A stretch of 64,000 nt of DNA, taken from an uncultured delta proteobacterium (GTDB lineage Bacteria; Myxococcota_A; Polyangia; Fen-1088). Made by a program: the position numbers and the translations under genes. This document shows positions 55,398 through 64,000 of this stretch, piece by piece. The number at the start of each line of letters is the position of its first letter. Position 1 is the first letter of the stretch. Location of the stretch: NCBI GenBank assembly GCA_963767925.1, contig CAVYGB010000008.1:3232001-3296000 (forward strand). The letters run 5' to 3'. The notes under the pieces are model-generated. The model searched no databases. It saw nothing but the letters and a program-made list of their open reading frames with translations, and had not been told where the DNA came from.

Positions 55398-55472
55398 AGG
55401 CGGGTAGCTCAGCGGCAGAGCAGGCGCTTTACACGCGCTAGGTCGCAGGTTCAATCCCTGTCCCGCCTACCA
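55398..55472 (+). tRNA. tRNA-Val (anticodon TAC)
   Basis: Acceptor stem AGGCGGG/CCCGCCT, D-arm GCTC/GAGC, anticodon loop TTTACAC, GGTTCAATCC T-arm, encoded CCA. Confidence 0.95.
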
Positions 55473-55490
55473 GTTAAGTTAGCGATTCGA

Positions 55491-56675
55491 CTACGTATTG
55501 GTTCGCGCCCGCGGCTCCGTTGCCACGGCGTTGCCACGGGTGAGGGCCGAGCGCGCGCCCAACATCGCGATCACGCGTTCGTCCGGGTCGGTGATGGGGG
55601 CGCCGGCGGCCAGGACCTCCGCCGGGATGGGGCGGTGGTGGTCCTCCACGTGGTGGACGTACCGCATGGTCATGGCGATGGTGGAGTGCCCGAGCCACGC
55701 CTGCAGCCGCCACGGGTTCACCCCGAAGCGAGCTGCGTGGGTGGCGAAGGTGTGGCGTGCCGAGTGCCAGCTGCGCTCGCGCAGTCCGGCCTTCTTGCAC
55801 ATGCGATAGACCCCGTGCTTGAGCGCCGCCTCCGCTACCGGCTCTCCCTTCTCCCCGCAGACGATCCGGCCCACCCGGACCTGTGGCAGCGACTTGAGCG
55901 CCGATGTCAGCGATGCCGTCATCGGTACGCTCCGCCGCCGCCCGCCCTTCGGCGTTCCCTCGATGCCCTTCCGGAGTTGCCGGGTGACGGTCAGTCGCCC
56001 GGCAACCAGGTCCACGTCCTCCCACCGCAGAGCCAGAACCTCACCGAGCCGCAGCCCTGCGTCGCCCGCCAGAAGCGCGGACACCAGCAACCACGGCGCC
56101 ACCCGCCGCGCCCCCTCGAGCAGCCGGCTCCACTCCTCGAAGTCCCACGTCTCGATCTCCGGCTTCTCGCAGCGGTAGGGCCGGATCTTCGGCACGCGGT
56201 CGATGAGATCCACCTCCTCCGCGTACCTCAGGACCTTCGAGAGCACGGCCAGGACATTGTTGCGAGTCTTGAGCGAGAGCGGCTTCCGATATCGGTTGCT
56301 GCCTTCGCTCAACTTCGCCTTCAAGCCCTGGATCACCGCCACGTCGATCTGGTCGAGCCGCATATGCCCGAGGAACCCGAGCAGATGGTGCTCGAAAATC
56401 GACCGCTTCTCTACCACCGTCCCCGGCTTGTTCTGCTGCCCCTCACACCACTCCGTCATGTATCGCCCCAGGAACCACTCCTCGAACGTGGGTACTTCCT
56501 TTCCTGCCTTGGGGTTGGTGATCGGCTCGAGAATGCGTCGGATGTGGTCCTCCTCCGCCCTCTCTGCCGCCCACCTGGTGTTGCTCGCGGGCGTGCCGGA
56601 GATCCGGCGCGTGGTGCCGTCCGGAAAGCCAACGACTTTCCGGTAGCGCCACCGTCCGCGACTGTCGCGTCGCAC
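55491..56675 (-). CDS. Tyrosine recombinase/phage integrase (upstream region replaced by a transposon end)
   Basis: GLRLGE, TPKGG, HSARH, LGHS, RYVH catalytic residues; N-terminal RRDSRGRWRYR arm-binding-like segment. Confidence 0.9.
   Translation of the reverse strand: MRRDSRGRWRYRKVVGFPDGTTRRISGTPASNTRWAAERAEEDHIRRILEPITNPKAGKEVPTFEEWFLGRYMTEWCEGQQNKPGTVVEKRSIFEHHLLGFLGHMRLDQIDVAVIQGLKAKLSEGSNRYRKPLSLKTRNNVLAVLSKVLRYAEEVDLIDRVPKIRPYRCEKPEIETWDFEEWSRLLEGARRVAPWLLVSALLAGDAGLRLGEVLALRWEDVDLVAGRLTVTRQLRKGIEGTPKGGRRRSVPMTASLTSALKSLPQVRVGRIVCGEKGEPVAEAALKHGVYRMCKKAGLRERSWHSARHTFATHAARFGVNPWRLQAWLGHSTIAMTMRYVHHVEDHHRPIPAEVLAAGAPITDPDERVIAMLGARSALTRGNAVATEPRARTNT
55518..55539 (+). repeat. Tandem CGTTGCCACGG pair, putative integrase arm-type sites (related pair at 63016-63036)
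   Basis: 11-bp tandem duplication near attL; same motif near attR. Confidence 0.55.
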
Positions 56676-56909
56676 GGGTGTTAGCTCGCAGGTAGTTTCG
56701 TAGATCACCGCGAGGATCTTCCGGCACTGCGCCCCCGGTGAGCCGGGTGAGATGGGGGGCGAGACCGGGACGGTGTGGCGGGGAGGTATTGCGGGAAGGG
56801 CGGCACCAAGGCAAAGCTCCTGGCCGGCAGGCATGGGGCCCGCCCTCGTGATCCCCAACATAAGTTGGGCCCGCCACGGCTGGTACCCGTGCGGACCCTT
56901 GGCCGGTCT

Positions 56910-57530
56910 GTGCAGCTGCGACAGGCGTCGGCACAGACCAGCGAGGAATACGTTAGGCAGGAAGGCTGGCGACAGGCAAGGCTCGAGCGGTGCCCGGTTC
57001 ACGGCGCGGCAGCGGGGTGCGGGTTCCGCCGGCTGGGGACGTACCAGCGGGTCAGGCCGGCCGGGATGCGGGTGGCGCGGTACTACTGCCCCACGGCCCA
57101 CACGAGCTTCAGCCTGTTGCCGGACTGCCTGGCGGCGAGGCTTCCGAGCGATCTCGACGAGGTGGAGCGGGTGGTCGCGGCGGTGGAGGCGGCGCCGTCC
57201 GTGCAAGCCGCGGCGGATGAGCTGCGCCCCGACATCGAGCTGCCCGGGGCGATACGGTGGGTCCGTCGGCGGCTGGGCCCGGTGCGGGCCGCGCTGCTGG
57301 CGCTGGTGACGATGGTGCCAGAGCTGGCAGGCTCGTGCGCCCCGACCATCACCGAGGTGGGGCAGCGGCTGGACAGGCCGGTGCTCCGGCAGGTGCGGGC
57401 TCAGTTCGAGAAGCAACTCGGGAAGGTGGCCGCGCCCGTCGGATTCGGGCGTCCGCCCTCACCCCGCCGACGAGGCCGGACACCCTGCGAACACGACCCG
57501 GGGCCAGACCCGCCGACGCGATCCCGGTAG
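56910..57530 (+). CDS. Transposon ORF1, Cys/His zinc-finger-like protein with possible HTH
   Basis: RCPVH...CGF...GTYQR...RYYCP...FSLLPDCL; GTG start inferred. Confidence 0.65.
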   Translation: MQLRQASAQTSEEYVRQEGWRQARLERCPVHGAAAGCGFRRLGTYQRVRPAGMRVARYYCPTAHTSFSLLPDCLAARLPSDLDEVERVVAAVEAAPSVQAAADELRPDIELPGAIRWVRRRLGPVRAALLALVTMVPELAGSCAPTITEVGQRLDRPVLRQVRAQFEKQLGKVAAPVGFGRPPSPRRRGRTPCEHDPGPDPPTRSR

Positions 57531-57571
57531 CGGTGGTGCGTGGCGCCCACGAGGGCGCCAAGGAGGCACCG

Positions 57572-58928
57572 ATGGACATCAAGGACGACGACAAGGAGCG
57601 ACGCCACGCCGTCGCGCTGTTCCGGTACGGGCTGATCGCGGACCTATTGCACTGGCCGCGAGGAAAGCGCGGGCTCGGCGAGATGATCGCCAAGAAGGCC
57701 GAGCGCGAGCACGACATTCCCGGGTCACGACGTTGCCGGGTGGCACCAGAGACGATCCGGGACTGGCTCAAGGACTACCGACAAGGCGGCTTTGATGCCC
57801 TGCTGCCCAAGCCCCGGCGGGACCAGGGGCAGGCGCGCGCCATCCCGCAGTCGGTGGTGGATCTGCTGTGCATGGTCAAGGAGGACAAGCCGGCGCTGTC
57901 GGTGCGGATGGTGATCGAAGCGGCGCGCGCCTCGGCAGAGGTGCCGCAGGACGTGGAGCTGGCGCCGGCGACGGTGCACCGGGTGCTGTCCCGAGCCGGC
58001 CTGATGGAGCGGCGGCCAGACGAGCCGACGAGCAACGACCGGCGCCGCTTCTCCTACCTGAAGGCAGGTGAGCTGTGGATGAGCGACGTCATGCACGGAC
58101 CGGCAGTCCTCGACGAGCGCAAGCGCCGGCGCAAGACGTATCTCATCTCCTTCATTGACGACGCCACGCGGGTGATCCCCTATGGGGCTTTCGCGCTCGG
58201 GGAAAATGTCGCGTGCTTTCTGCCCGTGTTCGAGCAAGCCATCCGCCGCAGAGGGATCCCGAAGCGGCTCTACGTTGATAATGGGGCGGCGTACCGGTCG
58301 AACCACCTGTCGCTGGTGTGCGCGAAGCTGGGAGTCACGCTGATCCACGCCCGCCCGTACCAGCCTCAGGGCAAGGGCAAGCAAGAGCGTTGGCATCGCG
58401 AGGTCCGACGCCAGTGCCTCGGCATCCTCGGCGAGCAGGACACGACCAGCCTGGAGGCGCTCAACCGCAGGCTCTGGTCCTGGATCGAGGGCGAGTACCA
58501 CCAGGCCCCGCACAAGGGCCTCGACGGTGAGACGCCGATCGAGCGCTGGGCACAGGTCTCCGATGAGGTACGACTGCCCGACGCCAATATCGACGTGGGC
58601 GACCTCTTCCTCTTCGAGGAAAAGCGCAAGGTCCACAAGGACAGGACCGTGAGCCTGCGGGGCGTGATCTACGAAGTCGACGCCGCCCTCGTCGGCGACA
58701 CGGTCACCCTGCGTTTCGACCCCTCCCGCCTCGGCAAGCCGGTCGAAGTCTGGGCCAAGGGGCGCAAGGTCGCACTCGCACGGCGGGTGGATGCCTACGC
58801 CAACTGCTTCGTCAGGCGCGACAACGAGGTCCGCGACACCCTGCGGGTCGACGGCGCCTCCGCGCCGCCACCGCCCGAGGGCCTGCGTCTGCGCGACTTC
58901 GACGGCGGTAGACGAAGGAGGCCGCTGA
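57572..58928 (+). CDS. Mu/TnsB-like DDE transposase (HTH, rve, C-terminal domain)
   Basis: ALFRYGLI, HTH TIRDWLKDYRQGG, DDE: WMSDVMH / YVDNGAAY / GKQERWH; RBS AGGAGG. Confidence 0.9.
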
Positions 58929-59725
58929 TGTACCGCAAGCACTTCGGCTTCAATCGCCATCCCTTCGGCAAGGAGATCGATCCCGACGACCTGTTTGCGT
59001 CAGGGTCCAGCCAGGAATTGGCGGCGCGGCTCGGGCACCTCATCGACATGCGCGGCATCGGGCTCGTCACCGGCGACAGCGGAAGCGGCAAGACCACCGC
59101 CTGCCGAAAAGTCGTCTCGGCGCTGCACACCGGCCTTCACCGCGTCGTCTACGTCGCTCACTCGACCGGCAACGTGATGGATGTCTACAAGACCATCGCC
59201 TGGGAGATGGGCCTGCCCACCGAGCGCAACCGCGCCGCCGTCTACCGCCAGATCCGGACGGAGGTGACCCGGCTGACCACGGAGGCTCGTTGCCGCCCGG
59301 TCCTCATCGTCGATGAGGCCCACCACCTGCGGCCCGACGTCCTCGAGGACCTGCGCTTGTTGACGAACTACCAGATGGATGCCGAAAACCGTCTGTGCCT
59401 GCTCCTGGTCGGCCAGACGGAACTGCGGCGTCGCCTGGGCATGGCGGTCTACGAGGCGCTCAGCCAGCGCATCGTCGTCCGCTACCATTTCGGGGGGCTC
59501 ACACGCGACGAACTGGCCGCCTATCTCGCGCACCGCTTGCGGCTGGCTGGGACCGAACTGCCCCTCTTCGAGCCCGCCGCCATCGAGGCGATCTTCCAGG
59601 CCACCGGCGGCCTGCCGCGCAAGGTGAACCTGCTGGCCCACCACGCGCTCATGGCCGCAGCCCTGGCGCGCGCCAAGACCGTCACCGCCGAGCACGTGCA
59701 GGCCGCCCTGCCGGAGGTCGGGTGA
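58928..59725 (+). CDS. ExeA-like/TnsC-like AAA+ ATPase
   Basis: MYRKHFGFNRHPF, GDSGSGKTT, IVDEAH, LVGQ, GLPRKVN; own RBS AAGGAGG. Confidence 0.9.
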   Translation: MYRKHFGFNRHPFGKEIDPDDLFASGSSQELAARLGHLIDMRGIGLVTGDSGSGKTTACRKVVSALHTGLHRVVYVAHSTGNVMDVYKTIAWEMGLPTERNRAAVYRQIRTEVTRLTTEARCRPVLIVDEAHHLRPDVLEDLRLLTNYQMDAENRLCLLLVGQTELRRRLGMAVYEALSQRIVVRYHFGGLTRDELAAYLAHRLRLAGTELPLFEPAAIEAIFQATGGLPRKVNLLAHHALMAAALARAKTVTAEHVQAALPEVG

Positions 59726-60039
59726 TGCCCCGGCGCCACCGCGTCCTCGACCCTGAGCCGCTGCTGCGGCCCACGCCCGGCGAGCTCACCGCCGCACCCG
59801 AGCTCGGCGTCTTGGCCGCACTCGACGCCAATCTGGCCACGGCCGCCTACCAGCTACACGCCGAGCACCCCGACCTCACCCTCGAGGCCCTCGCGCGAGG
59901 TGACCTCCCCTCGGCCCAGGCGCGCACCGCCAGCCTCCTGCTCTTCCGCTGCGCCGACCTCAGGGCGGCCATCAGGGACTACCGCGCCATCGCCGTCGAC
60001 TCCGATCCCGACGACGACCAGCTCCATCTGCCCTTCTGA
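59725..60039 (+). CDS. Transposon ORF4, small helical protein with acidic C-terminal DDDQLHLPF tail
   Basis: TGATG overlap with the ATPase stop; followed by a hairpin and the element end. Confidence 0.7.
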   Translation: MPRRHRVLDPEPLLRPTPGELTAAPELGVLAALDANLATAAYQLHAEHPDLTLEALARGDLPSAQARTASLLLFRCADLRAAIRDYRAIAVDSDPDDDQLHLPF

Positions 60040-60060
60040 TCGCCCGCTGACCCCACCGCC

Positions 60061-60104
60061 AGAGCCCCGGTCCCGAGCACTTCGGCGCCGGGGCTCTCGC
60101 TTTC
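60061..60104 (+). terminator. Hairpin/terminator after transposon operon
   Basis: AGAGCCCCGG...CCGGGGCTCT followed by CGCTTTC. Confidence 0.5.
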
Positions 60105-60212
60105 TAGCCCCTGCTGATCCCGCCTGCACTCGGCGTGCAATCTGGGAAACCACCCCACTGCACGCGCGCTTTTGGCCGACAAAGCCGCGGTGAAATAGCG
60201 TGAGAGACAACA

Positions 60213-60984
60213 CCTCGTCGACCACGCCCAGCTGCGCGAGCGGCGCAATCAACTGCGCCATCCCCAGTACACCGCGCCCGAGCTCATGGCGACCGGCCCC
60301 AACCAAGCGTGGAGTTGGGACATAACGAAGCTGAAAACCTTTCGTGAAGAGCCAGTACCTGCACCTCTACGTCATCCTCGACATCTACTCGCGCTATGTC
60401 GTCGGCTGGCGAGTCGAGACATGCGAATCCGGCGAGCTCGCCAAGGAGCTCATGGAAACCGCCTGCGAGCGGCAGAAGATCCCACCCGGCCTCCTCACCA
60501 TGCATTCCGACAACGGGCCCCGCGATGATCTCTCAGTCGGTGGCCTCGCTGCTCATCACCCTCGACGTGGCCAAGAGCCACTCGCGGCCCCACGTCTCCG
60601 ACGACAACCCCTTCTCCGAGGCGCAATTCAAAACGCTCAAGTACCGCCCCAACTTCCCCGAGCGCTTCGCCTCCCTCGAGCACGCTCGCGCCTTCCTGCG
60701 GGAGTTCTTCGCCTGGTACAACACCGCCCACCACCACAGCCGGTTGGCCCTGCTCACGCCCCACGACGTCCACCACGGCCTCGTTGACCAGCGGATCAGC
60801 CAGCGAGCCGCCGTCCTGGACGCCGCTTACGCCGCGAAGCCAGAGCGCTTCGTTCGCAGGGCACCGACCCCTCGCCGCCCACCGGAAACCGTTTGGATCA
60901 ATCCACCCAAGCAGTCCCCCGCGACCGAGGAGACGCGAGCGTAAATTCAACAGTTGGCGCTCTCAAAGTCGTTGACAGGTTCCG
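60213..60984 (+). mobile_element. 5'-truncated IS3-family element (integrase-core transposase, frameshifted)
   Basis: ERRNQLRHP...PNQAWSWDITKL, HSDNG, NPFSEAQFKTLKY; stop at 60944; right end approximate. Confidence 0.8.
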
Positions 60985-62131: not shown

Positions 62132-62569
62132 GTGCTTCCGTCCCTCGATCCGGATACAGGTCTCCTGCCCGCCGGCGAGCACGTGGCTCCTTGGGATGAA
62201 GTGCTGGAGAGGTTTGGATGGAATGACAGGCGCCGTGGACTACTCGATGGACTGGCTGAAGCCCTCGAATTGCTCGCGAGCGTCGGCTGCCGTCGCGTGT
62301 GGATCAACGGCAGCTTCGTCACGGCGAAGGACGAACCGGGTGACGTGGATGTCTGCTGGGACACCGCCGGAGTCGACCTGGACCGCATCGATCCCATCTT
62401 CCGCGACATGTCTCGTGGCCGAGCAGCGCAGAAGGAGCGCTTCGGCTGCGAGTTCCTCCCTAACGTCACCGAGACAGGCAGCGGCCTCGTCTTCGCAGAG
62501 TTCTTTCAACAGGAACGGGACGGTTCCCGGAAGGGAATAGTCGTGCTGGAGCTGGGCGAACAAACATGA
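62132..62569 (+). CDS. DUF6932-like minimal nucleotidyltransferase-fold protein
   Basis: GLLPAGEH, NGSFVTAK.EPGDVD, RKGIV. Confidence 0.75.
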   Translation: MLPSLDPDTGLLPAGEHVAPWDEVLERFGWNDRRRGLLDGLAEALELLASVGCRRVWINGSFVTAKDEPGDVDVCWDTAGVDLDRIDPIFRDMSRGRAAQKERFGCEFLPNVTETGSGLVFAEFFQQERDGSRKGIVVLELGEQT

Positions 62570-63003
62570 TCACCAACGACGTGCAGTATCGGTCCACGAA
62601 GGCCCACCTCCGGAAGTTCGAGGACGCCCTTGCGAATCTGGAGGCCGCCGCCGGGGACAAACCGACCAAGCTCCAGCGACTTGAGATCGATGCGGTGACT
62701 GCCCAGGCCGAAGACCTCCGCGCCGAGATTCGCGAGTATGAGGCGCTGTCATCAGGAAAGATTTCGACATTCGAAGCGTCGTCGCTCGCTGGACTAGCGA
62801 GCTTGCTGATCAAGGCGCGCATCGCAAGGGGGTGGAGCCAGCGACGTCTGGCGGATGAACTGCGAGTCGCCGAACAGCAGGTTCAGCGGTACGAGGCCAC
62901 CGAGTACCGCACCGCCAGCCTGGCGCGGATCGGTGATGTGGCCGCCGCGCTCGGTGTGGACATCGCCGAAACGGCGCGGCTGCGGGATCGCAGCGCCGCA
63001 TGA
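62566..63003 (+). CDS. XRE-family HTH protein with N-terminal coiled coil (putative antitoxin)
   Basis: MITNDVQY, ARIARGWSQRRLA...QQVQRYE; ATGA overlap. Confidence 0.8.
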   Translation: MITNDVQYRSTKAHLRKFEDALANLEAAAGDKPTKLQRLEIDAVTAQAEDLRAEIREYEALSSGKISTFEASSLAGLASLLIKARIARGWSQRRLADELRVAEQQVQRYEATEYRTASLARIGDVAAALGVDIAETARLRDRSAA

Positions 63004-63261: not shown

Positions 63262-63543
63262 ATGGCGGACACGCAAATCTCGGCATTCATCTCCGACACC
63301 ACGAAGGAGCTCGTGGAGCGGTACGTGGAGGCCCACGGGGTCAAGAAGGGTCACCTCCTCGAGGAGGCACTGCTTCACCATCTGCAGGCACTCCGGGAGC
63401 TGCCGGCGGATCTGATCGTTCCCCCCAGACTCGTTGTTTCCCGGGAAAGCTTCGAGCGCGTCGCAGGGTTGGTTGAGCAGCCACGTGAGCCGACGCAGGC
63501 TATGCGAGATCTCATGACTGGCAAGAAGGCTCGACGGCCCTGA
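63262..63543 (+). CDS. RHH-type antitoxin (DUF1778-like)
   Basis: N-terminal beta strand plus two helices, C-terminal P.EPT.AMRDL; TGATG overlap with GNAT. Confidence 0.7.
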   Translation: MADTQISAFISDTTKELVERYVEAHGVKKGHLLEEALLHHLQALRELPADLIVPPRLVVSRESFERVAGLVEQPREPTQAMRDLMTGKKARRP

Positions 63544-64000
63544 TGGCCCGTGAGGTCCGCCGGCTTCGTCCCGAAGACGACCGGTCGGGATTCCGCTCCG
63601 GGAACATCGAGCTCGACCGCTTCTTCCAGCGCTTCGCGGGCCAGAACCAGTTCCGCCATCACATAGGGACAACTTACGTGGCCGTCGACGGCGGGGCCAT
63701 TCTCGGGTTTGCGACGGTTGCTCCTTCCGAGATCGCGACGGCCGATCTGCCACCATCCCGGAGAAAGCGACTGCCGCAATATCCCCTTCCAGTCCTGCGA
63801 CTGGCGCGACTCGCGACCGACGAGCGCGCCCGTGGGCAGGGTGTTGGCAGCGCTCTCTTGCGCGCGGTCTTCGCCTTGGCCCACCAACTCGCGGCCGACT
63901 ACGGTTGCATCGGCGTTGTCGTCGACGCCAAGGCGGATGCGGTCGGCTTTTATGAGCGCTTGGGGTTCCTCCCCCTCGACGTGCAAGGTGGTCAACTGGG
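63543..64000 (+). CDS. GNAT acetyltransferase toxin (AtaT/TacT-like), runs off window
   Basis: FRSGNIELDRFF, YPLPVLRLARLATD..ARGQGVG, VVDAK, FYERLGF; absent from the ORF track. Confidence 0.85.
   Translation, partial: MAREVRRLRPEDDRSGFRSGNIELDRFFQRFAGQNQFRHHIGTTYVAVDGGAILGFATVAPSEIATADLPPSRRKRLPQYPLPVLRLARLATDERARGQGVGSALLRAVFALAHQLAADYGCIGVVVDAKADAVGFYERLGFLPLDVQGGQL

Follow-up and report, generated by a model that had tools for sequence, protein, structure and literature searches.

How the DNA intermediates of a transposon are handed over to the replication and repair machinery of the host is still poorly understood, and the use that such elements make of their host has been framed as "hiring versus hijacking" (bioRxiv 10.64898/2026.05.30.728999). 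Known links between transposons and replication are the beta-clamp-binding motifs of TnsE and of some transposases, and the precedents for the use of a host replication hub include Tn7 TnsE, peptides from the transposases of nine insertion sequence (IS) families and a small IS66 open reading frame (ORF) with a C-terminal beta motif (PMC3971601). Here a further candidate is considered: ORF4, a protein of 104 amino acids (aa) encoded at the end of a 3534-bp transposon in an uncultured delta proteobacterium. The transposon (56679..60212) lies in a stretch of 64,000 nucleotides of contig CAVYGB010000008.1 (assembly GCA_963767925.1), which is called the window in the following; the element and all of its features described below are given on the plus strand. 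ORF4 is a real, conserved and hitherto undescribed accessory protein of this small Mu-like transposon, and its acidic C-terminal tail shows likeness to two known docking peptides.

Clamp-binding motifs are penta- or hexapeptides, e.g. QLSLPL or QTSMAF (PMC3664792), with the consensus Q-L-S-L-F/L, in which Q1 and L4 are the most conserved positions, and are often located on flexible C-termini (PMC3971601). The C-terminal peptide (SSB-Ct) of SSB, a protein that binds single-stranded DNA, is acidic with a run of Asp directly before Ile-Pro-Phe (PMC3159472 and PMC5872125), and in its definition the terminal Phe with the free alpha-carboxylate is the key contact (PMC3159472). The ORF4 tail resembles this SSB tip in being disordered and acidic and in ending with a hydrophobic residue, Pro and a Phe-carboxylate, the terminal Phe being best conserved. 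With the clamp motifs of transposon proteins (TnsE, nine IS families, the IS66 ORF) it shares a short motif on a flexible C-terminus; it differs from them in that ORF4 is related to TnsE neither by sequence nor by fold, and in that a single clade of its family possesses the motif.

The element as a whole resembles Mu (MuA/MuB) and the Tn7-like modules (TnsB/TnsC(/TniQ)) by its DDE transposase with a Mu-transpos_C domain, which has TnsB as its nearest solved relative, by an AAA+ partner with MuB as its sole solved relative, and by TG...CA ends and 5-bp target duplications, the latter seen in its sister copies L007, L008 and L011. In contrast to these systems it is much smaller (3.5 kb) and has no TnsA, TniQ, resolvase or CRISPR part, but possesses instead a Zn-ribbon ORF1 and the tail protein ORF4. 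A second group for comparison are the three-gene elements of the plasmids pGS18 (Geobacillus) and pDK2 (Rhodococcus), which have the same order of a DUF6431 or hypothetical gene, an IS481-type or DDE transposase and an AAA ATPase, the ATPases being 34-37% identical to that of the window. Relatives on plasmids carry the annotation IS481 family. No ORF4-like gene follows the ATPase in either of them, and ORF4 is thus an add-on rather than a part of the core catalysis.

The ORF4 gene (59725..60039) is translated into 104 aa followed by a stop codon, comprising a conserved N-terminal PLLRP segment, a helical hairpin and an acidic tail. The tail (residues 92-104, DSDPDDDQLHLPF) is encoded at 59998..60036 and terminates in DDDQLHLPF, the QLHLPF part of which is located at 60019-60036. 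One base is common to the ATG of ORF4 at 59725 and the TGA of the upstream ATPase frame (gggTGATGccc), and a GGAGG at 59713-59717 is located 7 nt 5' of this ATG, so that the coupling signal as a whole spans 59713..59727. The TGATG junction of ATPase stop and ORF4 start is kept in 9 of 9 related loci examined. With a GC content of 0.80/0.50/0.90 at the three codon positions, in a window of 71% GC, ORF4 looks like coding sequence. The initial annotation, made from the letters of the window, had described a helical protein of 104 aa with this C-terminus and these coordinates, translationally coupled to the ATPase and forming the fourth gene of a transposon. Translation reproduced the protein exactly, an AlphaFold2 model agrees with its helical nature (helices 18-47 and 64-91), and coupling and gene membership are upheld by the TGATG overlap and by synteny in 11 of 11 loci.

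Homologues of ORF4 are numerous: 82 were obtained at E<=0.01 among 130 candidates, and a profile yielded 172 at E<=0.001. The tails of 145 family proteins were counted, leaving out an unrelated repeat protein (P0100) and a translation made for the analysis (P0112). Phe is the last residue in 122 of the 145, a frequency far above chance, which answers the question of tail conservation raised by the initial annotation in the positive, and in 108 of the 145 this Phe is accompanied by at least two acidic residues within the last nine. The eight residues preceding the last one contain on average 2.4 acidic and 0.25 basic residues. Seventy-five members terminate in PF and 64 in Phi-P-F; among the 122 tails ending with Phe, Pro occupies position -2 in 75, and at position -3 there is Leu in 63 of them and Ile in another 13. 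When the family is clustered by single linkage, most members have a terminal Phe in 36 of 43 clusters at 70% identity and in 13 of 15 at 50%. The tail is conserved while the linker varies. These counts indicate that the ORF4 tail is under selection and that the feature conserved throughout the family is an acidic context followed by Phi-(P)-F-COOH.

The clamp-type motif shows a different distribution. A hexamer Q[LM]x[LMI]x[LF] is present in 39 of the 145 proteins, a pentamer in none, and QLxLPF in 36 of 83 close homologues; Gln at -6 is found in 41 of the 122 Phe-ending tails. Of the 42 members that share less than 50% identity with the window protein, 35 have a final F, 24 terminate in PF and none has QLxLxF; distant members (33-45% identity) terminate in DDIPF, PEIPF, DDVPF, GDLPF or DDFPF. 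In a tree calculated from the body of the protein (last 14 residues excluded, 91 columns; a quick tree with many unresolved forks) 35 of 38 QLxLxF rows fall into one derived clade of 41, the other three (QLPLPF) standing elsewhere, and 19 members of a deep clade of 21 rows have xPF tails such as DDIPF, PEIPF or DDVPF. As far as this tree goes, QL is a later addition in the clade of the window, and the clamp motif is a feature of this clade and not of the family.

The tail had been described in the initial annotation as a motif resembling those of the beta clamp and the SSB tail, a claim of which one part stands better than the other. The QLHLPF of the window satisfies the hexapeptide pattern for clamp binding given in the literature and is situated on a C-terminus which AlphaFold2 models with low confidence, i.e. 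as flexible. Among the homologues the motif is not conserved (hexamer in 39 of 145, no pentamer, none in the 42 distant members), so that the clamp part of the claim would apply to one clade; a DnaN gene is not encoded in the window. The features conserved across the family favour the SSB-like part, though this match, too, is loose. The terminal Phe is shared by the window protein and 122 of the 145 members, and Ile or Leu plus Pro in front of it are represented by LPF in the window and by the PF and Phi-P-F endings counted above, other members having YLNF, SLF or DLF. That the Phe is strictly terminal points to a reading of its carboxylate, which is the mode of SSB-Ct.

Several observations weigh against an SSB-type tail. 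The strict form [DE][DE]-Phi-P-F, with two acidic residues directly before Phi-P-F, exists in just 8 of 145 proteins and a single acidic residue in this place in 33 of 145. Compared with the SSB tip the acidic run is shorter or displaced, and in the window the DDD is separated from LPF by the three inserted residues QLH. Forty-seven of the 122 Phe-ending tails have no Pro at -2 (YLNF, YLHF, SLF, DLF) and fit neither SSB-Ct nor the full clamp motif. Twenty-three of the 145 proteins have no final Phe; several of them are visibly frameshifted or truncated, but groups ending in DDDPPL/DDPTL and ...SEHSSS look intact. Moreover, the SSB tip is attached to an OB-fold core that binds single-stranded DNA, whereas ORF4 is a transposon-encoded helical hairpin without an OB fold and thus at most a mimic of the SSB tip, not an SSB. 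Finally, proteins of the element itself could offer a basic DNA-binding surface that would be an equally possible partner for an acidic tail ending in an aromatic residue. On balance the SSB-like reading would fit the family, though loosely, and the clamp reading would fit the clade of the window only; it is from this fit of the residues that we infer binding.

The body of ORF4 belongs to no described family among those searched. There was no match in Pfam, even at E<=10, or in NCBIfam, a profile search of the PDB gave one match with an E-value of 0.18, and none of 49 Foldseek matches against the PDB reached E<=0.001, all of them being generic helical hairpins. These Pfam, NCBIfam, PDB sequence and fold searches also gave no homology to TnsE. 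The ESM Atlas contained no usable match, tblastn against 72,556 plasmid records found nothing, and no fused or longer form of ORF4 turned up in 8000 scored candidates, a weak line of evidence. The AlphaFold2 model (83-row alignment, mean pLDDT 81, pTM 0.60) has an extended N-terminus followed by the two long, confident helices mentioned above. In the tail the pLDDT of residues 91-104 averages 51-56 and is below 50 at 98-100. The best-conserved part of the protein is the N-terminal stretch PLLRP...APELGVLAALDATLATAAYQL, which may represent the interface with the machinery of the element. A prediction of the complex of ATPase (9 rows) and ORF4 (83 rows) scored 0.00 twice, the mark being 0.32; this value counts neither for nor against an interaction.

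The limits of the transposon were placed by homology to L007, L008 and L011, three copies from one metagenome-assembled genome (MAG) which have 3538-3558 bp in common with 99.8-100% identity. Their ends read TGTTGG...CGACA and they are flanked by 5-bp target duplications (GCCGC, CCCCC and CTCCT). Near-identical copies with TGT...ACA ends and 5-bp duplications characterise the element as mobile and Mu/Tn7-like. The window contains a single copy, with imperfect terminal inverted repeats starting with TGTT: the left one (TGTTAGCTCGCAGGTAGTTTCG) at 56679..56700 and the right one (ending ...GAGAGACAACA) at 60191..60212, each homologous to the corresponding end of L007. Of the first 22 bases of the two ends 14 match. 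Both termini are therefore present, but a target duplication was not found, the flanks being ACGGG and CCTCG. An inverted repeat with 19-nt arms (84% complementary) and a 5-nt loop occurs at 60058..60100 within the right end of the element, starting 19 nt 3' of the ORF4 stop; a consensus scan did not score it as an intrinsic terminator, and a promoter and terminator scan of 56600-60300 found none.

A scan of genomes returned 12 loci, 11 of them true relatives. The remaining one, L012 of an Oligoflexia genome, was set aside, since its word match is spurious and falls within an unrelated ORF of 313 aa. Each of the 11 true relatives shows, over the part that its contig covers, the order ORF1-transposase-ATPase-ORF4 with ORF4 always last, and they are distributed over Myxococcota-like, Acidobacteria, Burkholderiales and Sulfuricaulis MAGs. 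Many ORF4 homologues come from contigs about 3.2-4.0 kb long, a size near that of the element itself, as is expected when a multi-copy repeat breaks metagenome assemblies.

The proposal that we hold tentatively, and consider slightly less than evenly probable, is that ORF4 could be an adaptor, the body of which joins the transposition machinery while the tail docks on readers of SSB-type tails among the replication or restart proteins of the host, and possibly also on the beta clamp in the clade of the window. The N-terminal segment and the hairpin would attach ORF4 to the machinery of the element, most likely to the co-translated MuB-like ATPase, and the disordered acidic tail with its C-terminal Phe would act as a short docking peptide for a host replication/repair hub. 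Since the tail of the family has the form of the SSB tip (acidic residues, a hydrophobic residue, Pro and Phe-COOH), readers of SSB tails would be the likeliest partners, e.g. PriA, the chi subunit of the clamp loader, primase or enzymes of the RecQ/RecO/ExoI type. In the clade of the window the added QLx yields QLxLPF and might permit docking on the beta clamp, in addition or instead. In this way the element would be tethered to replication forks or to the restart machinery, and through this tether the strand-transfer intermediate could be passed on to host replication or gap repair, or the capture of targets could be biased towards replicating DNA. A transposase of the TnsB/MuA type without TnsA or a resolvase must rely on the host for processing the strand-transfer product, which fits a tether of this kind. 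A narrower version appears rather unlikely to us: ORF4 as a transposon-encoded mimic of the SSB tip on a non-SSB scaffold, sitting on the ATPase or transpososome and using the universal code of SSB tails, extended to the clamp hexamer in this clade, which would recruit PriA, the clamp loader or the clamp to the strand-transfer intermediate, or would find forks.

The main competing explanation, somewhat unlikely in itself, needs no host partner at all. The acidic, Phe-ended tail might bind a basic DNA-binding surface of the ATPase, the transposase or ORF1 and act as a DNA-mimicking or hook peptide that gates the ATPase filament or target binding, or the activation of the transposase. The tail of T7 gp2.5 likewise ends in Phe and folds back on the protein's own DNA site. 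Such an internal role would agree with the co-translation of ORF4 and the MuB-like ATPase, seen in 9 of 9 loci, and the sole universal features of the tail, its acidity and the aromatic residue at its end, are generic ones among peptides that fill DNA-binding clefts. The heterogeneity of the endings (YLNF, SLF, PPF, IPF) would also be easier to understand with a co-evolving partner from the element than with a highly conserved host pocket. On the other hand, the ATPase is 90% conserved across the loci while the tails differ, which is unlike tight co-variation; the three-gene relatives work without ORF4; and the transposase has a conserved C-terminal peptide of its own (PPEGLRLRDFDG) by which the ATPase could be hooked. 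Convergence on Phi-P-F-COOH and QLxLPF, two known codes of host hubs, would be a coincidence if the tail acted within the element.

Docking on the host by way of the clamp alone is improbable. ORF4 would then be a dedicated clamp adaptor, as in the leading idea of the initial annotation, a miniature functional analogue of TnsE which guides the ATPase together with the transposase to clamps left behind on incoming or replicating DNA. QLHLPF agrees with the hexapeptide pattern and has the position at a flexible C-terminus that is common among clamp motifs, transposon accessory ORFs with C-terminal beta motifs are on record (PMC3971601), and the motif is strictly kept in the clade of the window, as seen from the 36 QLxLPF among 83 close homologues and the 39 hexamers among 145. 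But Q1, one of the two most conserved positions of the motif, is missing from most of the family (Gln at -6 in 41 of 122), the 42 distant members contain no QLxLxF and the 145 no pentamer, and ORF4 has neither similarity to TnsE nor any family match. The place of the motif in a derived clade means that the tail cannot have had clamp binding as its ancestral role. Very improbable, finally, is a tail that serves as a turnover or other signal, for instance a C-terminal degron for a host protease or unfoldase, or as a structural cap, with a fortuitous likeness to SSB and clamp peptides. C-terminal peptides are commonly degrons, the C-terminus of MuA is reportedly read by ClpX, and the strict SSB-Ct and clamp signatures are each found in a minority of the family. 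Yet a terminal Phe in 122 of 145 proteins, down to 33% identity, argues for a specific pocket, and ssrA-type degrons are non-polar, unlike an acidic Phi-P-F-COOH.

The other three genes of the element precede ORF4. ORF1 (56910..57530) encodes a zinc-ribbon-like protein of about 206 aa in which C28, H31, C37 and C60 are invariant in an alignment of seven sequences, as is typical of a zinc ribbon. By its position it is the counterpart of the DUF6431 gene of the three-gene elements. It carries a conserved ...YCP...SLLPD... segment like the DUF6431 protein of the Geobacillus plasmid element (L013, 1553-2116). Pfam and NCBIfam gave no match, and the BLASTP match to the DUF6431 protein of pGS18 is weak and marginal (E 0.008); membership in DUF6431 was thus not accepted and the relation is left as an analogy of position. 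The AlphaFold2 model is poor (pLDDT 51, 7-row alignment). ORF1 may be the DNA- or target-recognition subunit of the element.

The transposase (57572..58927) is a DDE enzyme of the TnsB/MuA type with matches to rve (6.5e-11), Mu-transpos_C (2.8e-8), HTH_32 and HTH_28. TnsB (7svw, E 1.8e-8) is its best solved relative, and the nearest NCBIfam model is IS481 (NF033577), the cut-off of which is not reached (211 versus 224 bits). Its C-terminal peptide PPEGLRLRDFDG (about 58870-58905) is strongly conserved in 6 of 6 aligned copies. C-terminal peptides of TnsB and MuA reportedly dock on TnsC and MuB, and by analogy that of the window transposase could be a hook for the ATPase.

The AAA+ ATPase (58928..59725; 265 aa, MYRKHFG...) is MuB-like or ExeA-like. 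It matches AAA_22 (2.3e-26) and, weakly, TniB (E 0.008); the nearest NCBIfam model is the ExeA-like TIGR03015 with 163.8 bits, below the cut-off of 324.5, and among solved structures its sequence has a relative in MuB alone ("ATP-dependent target DNA activator B"; 8xvb, E 3.2e-6). Among nine sequences the mean column identity is 90%. In related loci the stop codon of the transposase overlaps the ATG of the ATPase, whereas in the window copy both lie in a single open frame, 57257-59725, without a stop between them, so that the ATPase does not have a frame of its own here. This frame might encode a TnsB-like/MuB-like fusion of about 718 aa. Compared with L007 the junction (58860-58960) has an 8-nt gap just 5' of a conserved AAGGAGG...TGATG. 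Because the Shine-Dalgarno sequence and the ATG of the ATPase are retained there, a separate ATPase could still be made.

In a related element of a Streptomyces plasmid (L014, 3253-3483) a different small ORF, of 76 aa and ending in ...ERTDGR, is located between transposase and ATPase, and no such gene follows the latter; the lineages of this transposon group hence differ in their small accessory genes. A match of the ATPase on a Palleronia plasmid (H6) was discarded as a transposon relative, as it sits in a polysaccharide/PEP-CTERM-type locus.

The left end of the transposon adjoins the first codons of a tyrosine integrase gene on the minus strand (Phage_integrase, 4.7e-24) beside a tRNA-Val (55398-55472), and its right end the interior of an IS3-like orfB remnant (rve_3, 4.5e-14). 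The two flanks, 55398-56678 and 60213-60944, give the appearance of a tRNA integration site at which mobile elements have clustered and been rearranged. Further downstream in the same island a two-gene cassette is found at 62132-63003, in which a DUF6932 gene (3.3e-35) overlaps by 4 nt the next gene with a C-terminal HTH_3 (1.3e-9). At 63262-63998 an ORF of 93 aa without family match ends where the ORF of a GNAT acetyltransferase starts (ATG at 63543; Acetyltransf_7, 1.2e-13), which extends past the end of the window; this layout resembles GNAT-type toxin-antitoxin pairs.

Within the journals covered, a literature search found neither a transposon protein described as carrying a mimic of the SSB tail nor a paper on DUF6431-type elements. 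If its tail is read as an SSB tip, ORF4 would be a non-SSB protein using the SSB-tail code, and its mimicry would give a Mu-like element without TnsA and resolvase a portable, broad-host means of recruiting host replication. A protein of 104 aa with a hairpin and a hub-docking tail would then be a very simple and testable connector, reduced to one peptide and one Phe. Docking, if true, would also explain how so compact an element spread across Myxococcota-like, Acidobacteria, Burkholderiales and Sulfuricaulis MAGs, because both candidate pockets of the host are near-universal.

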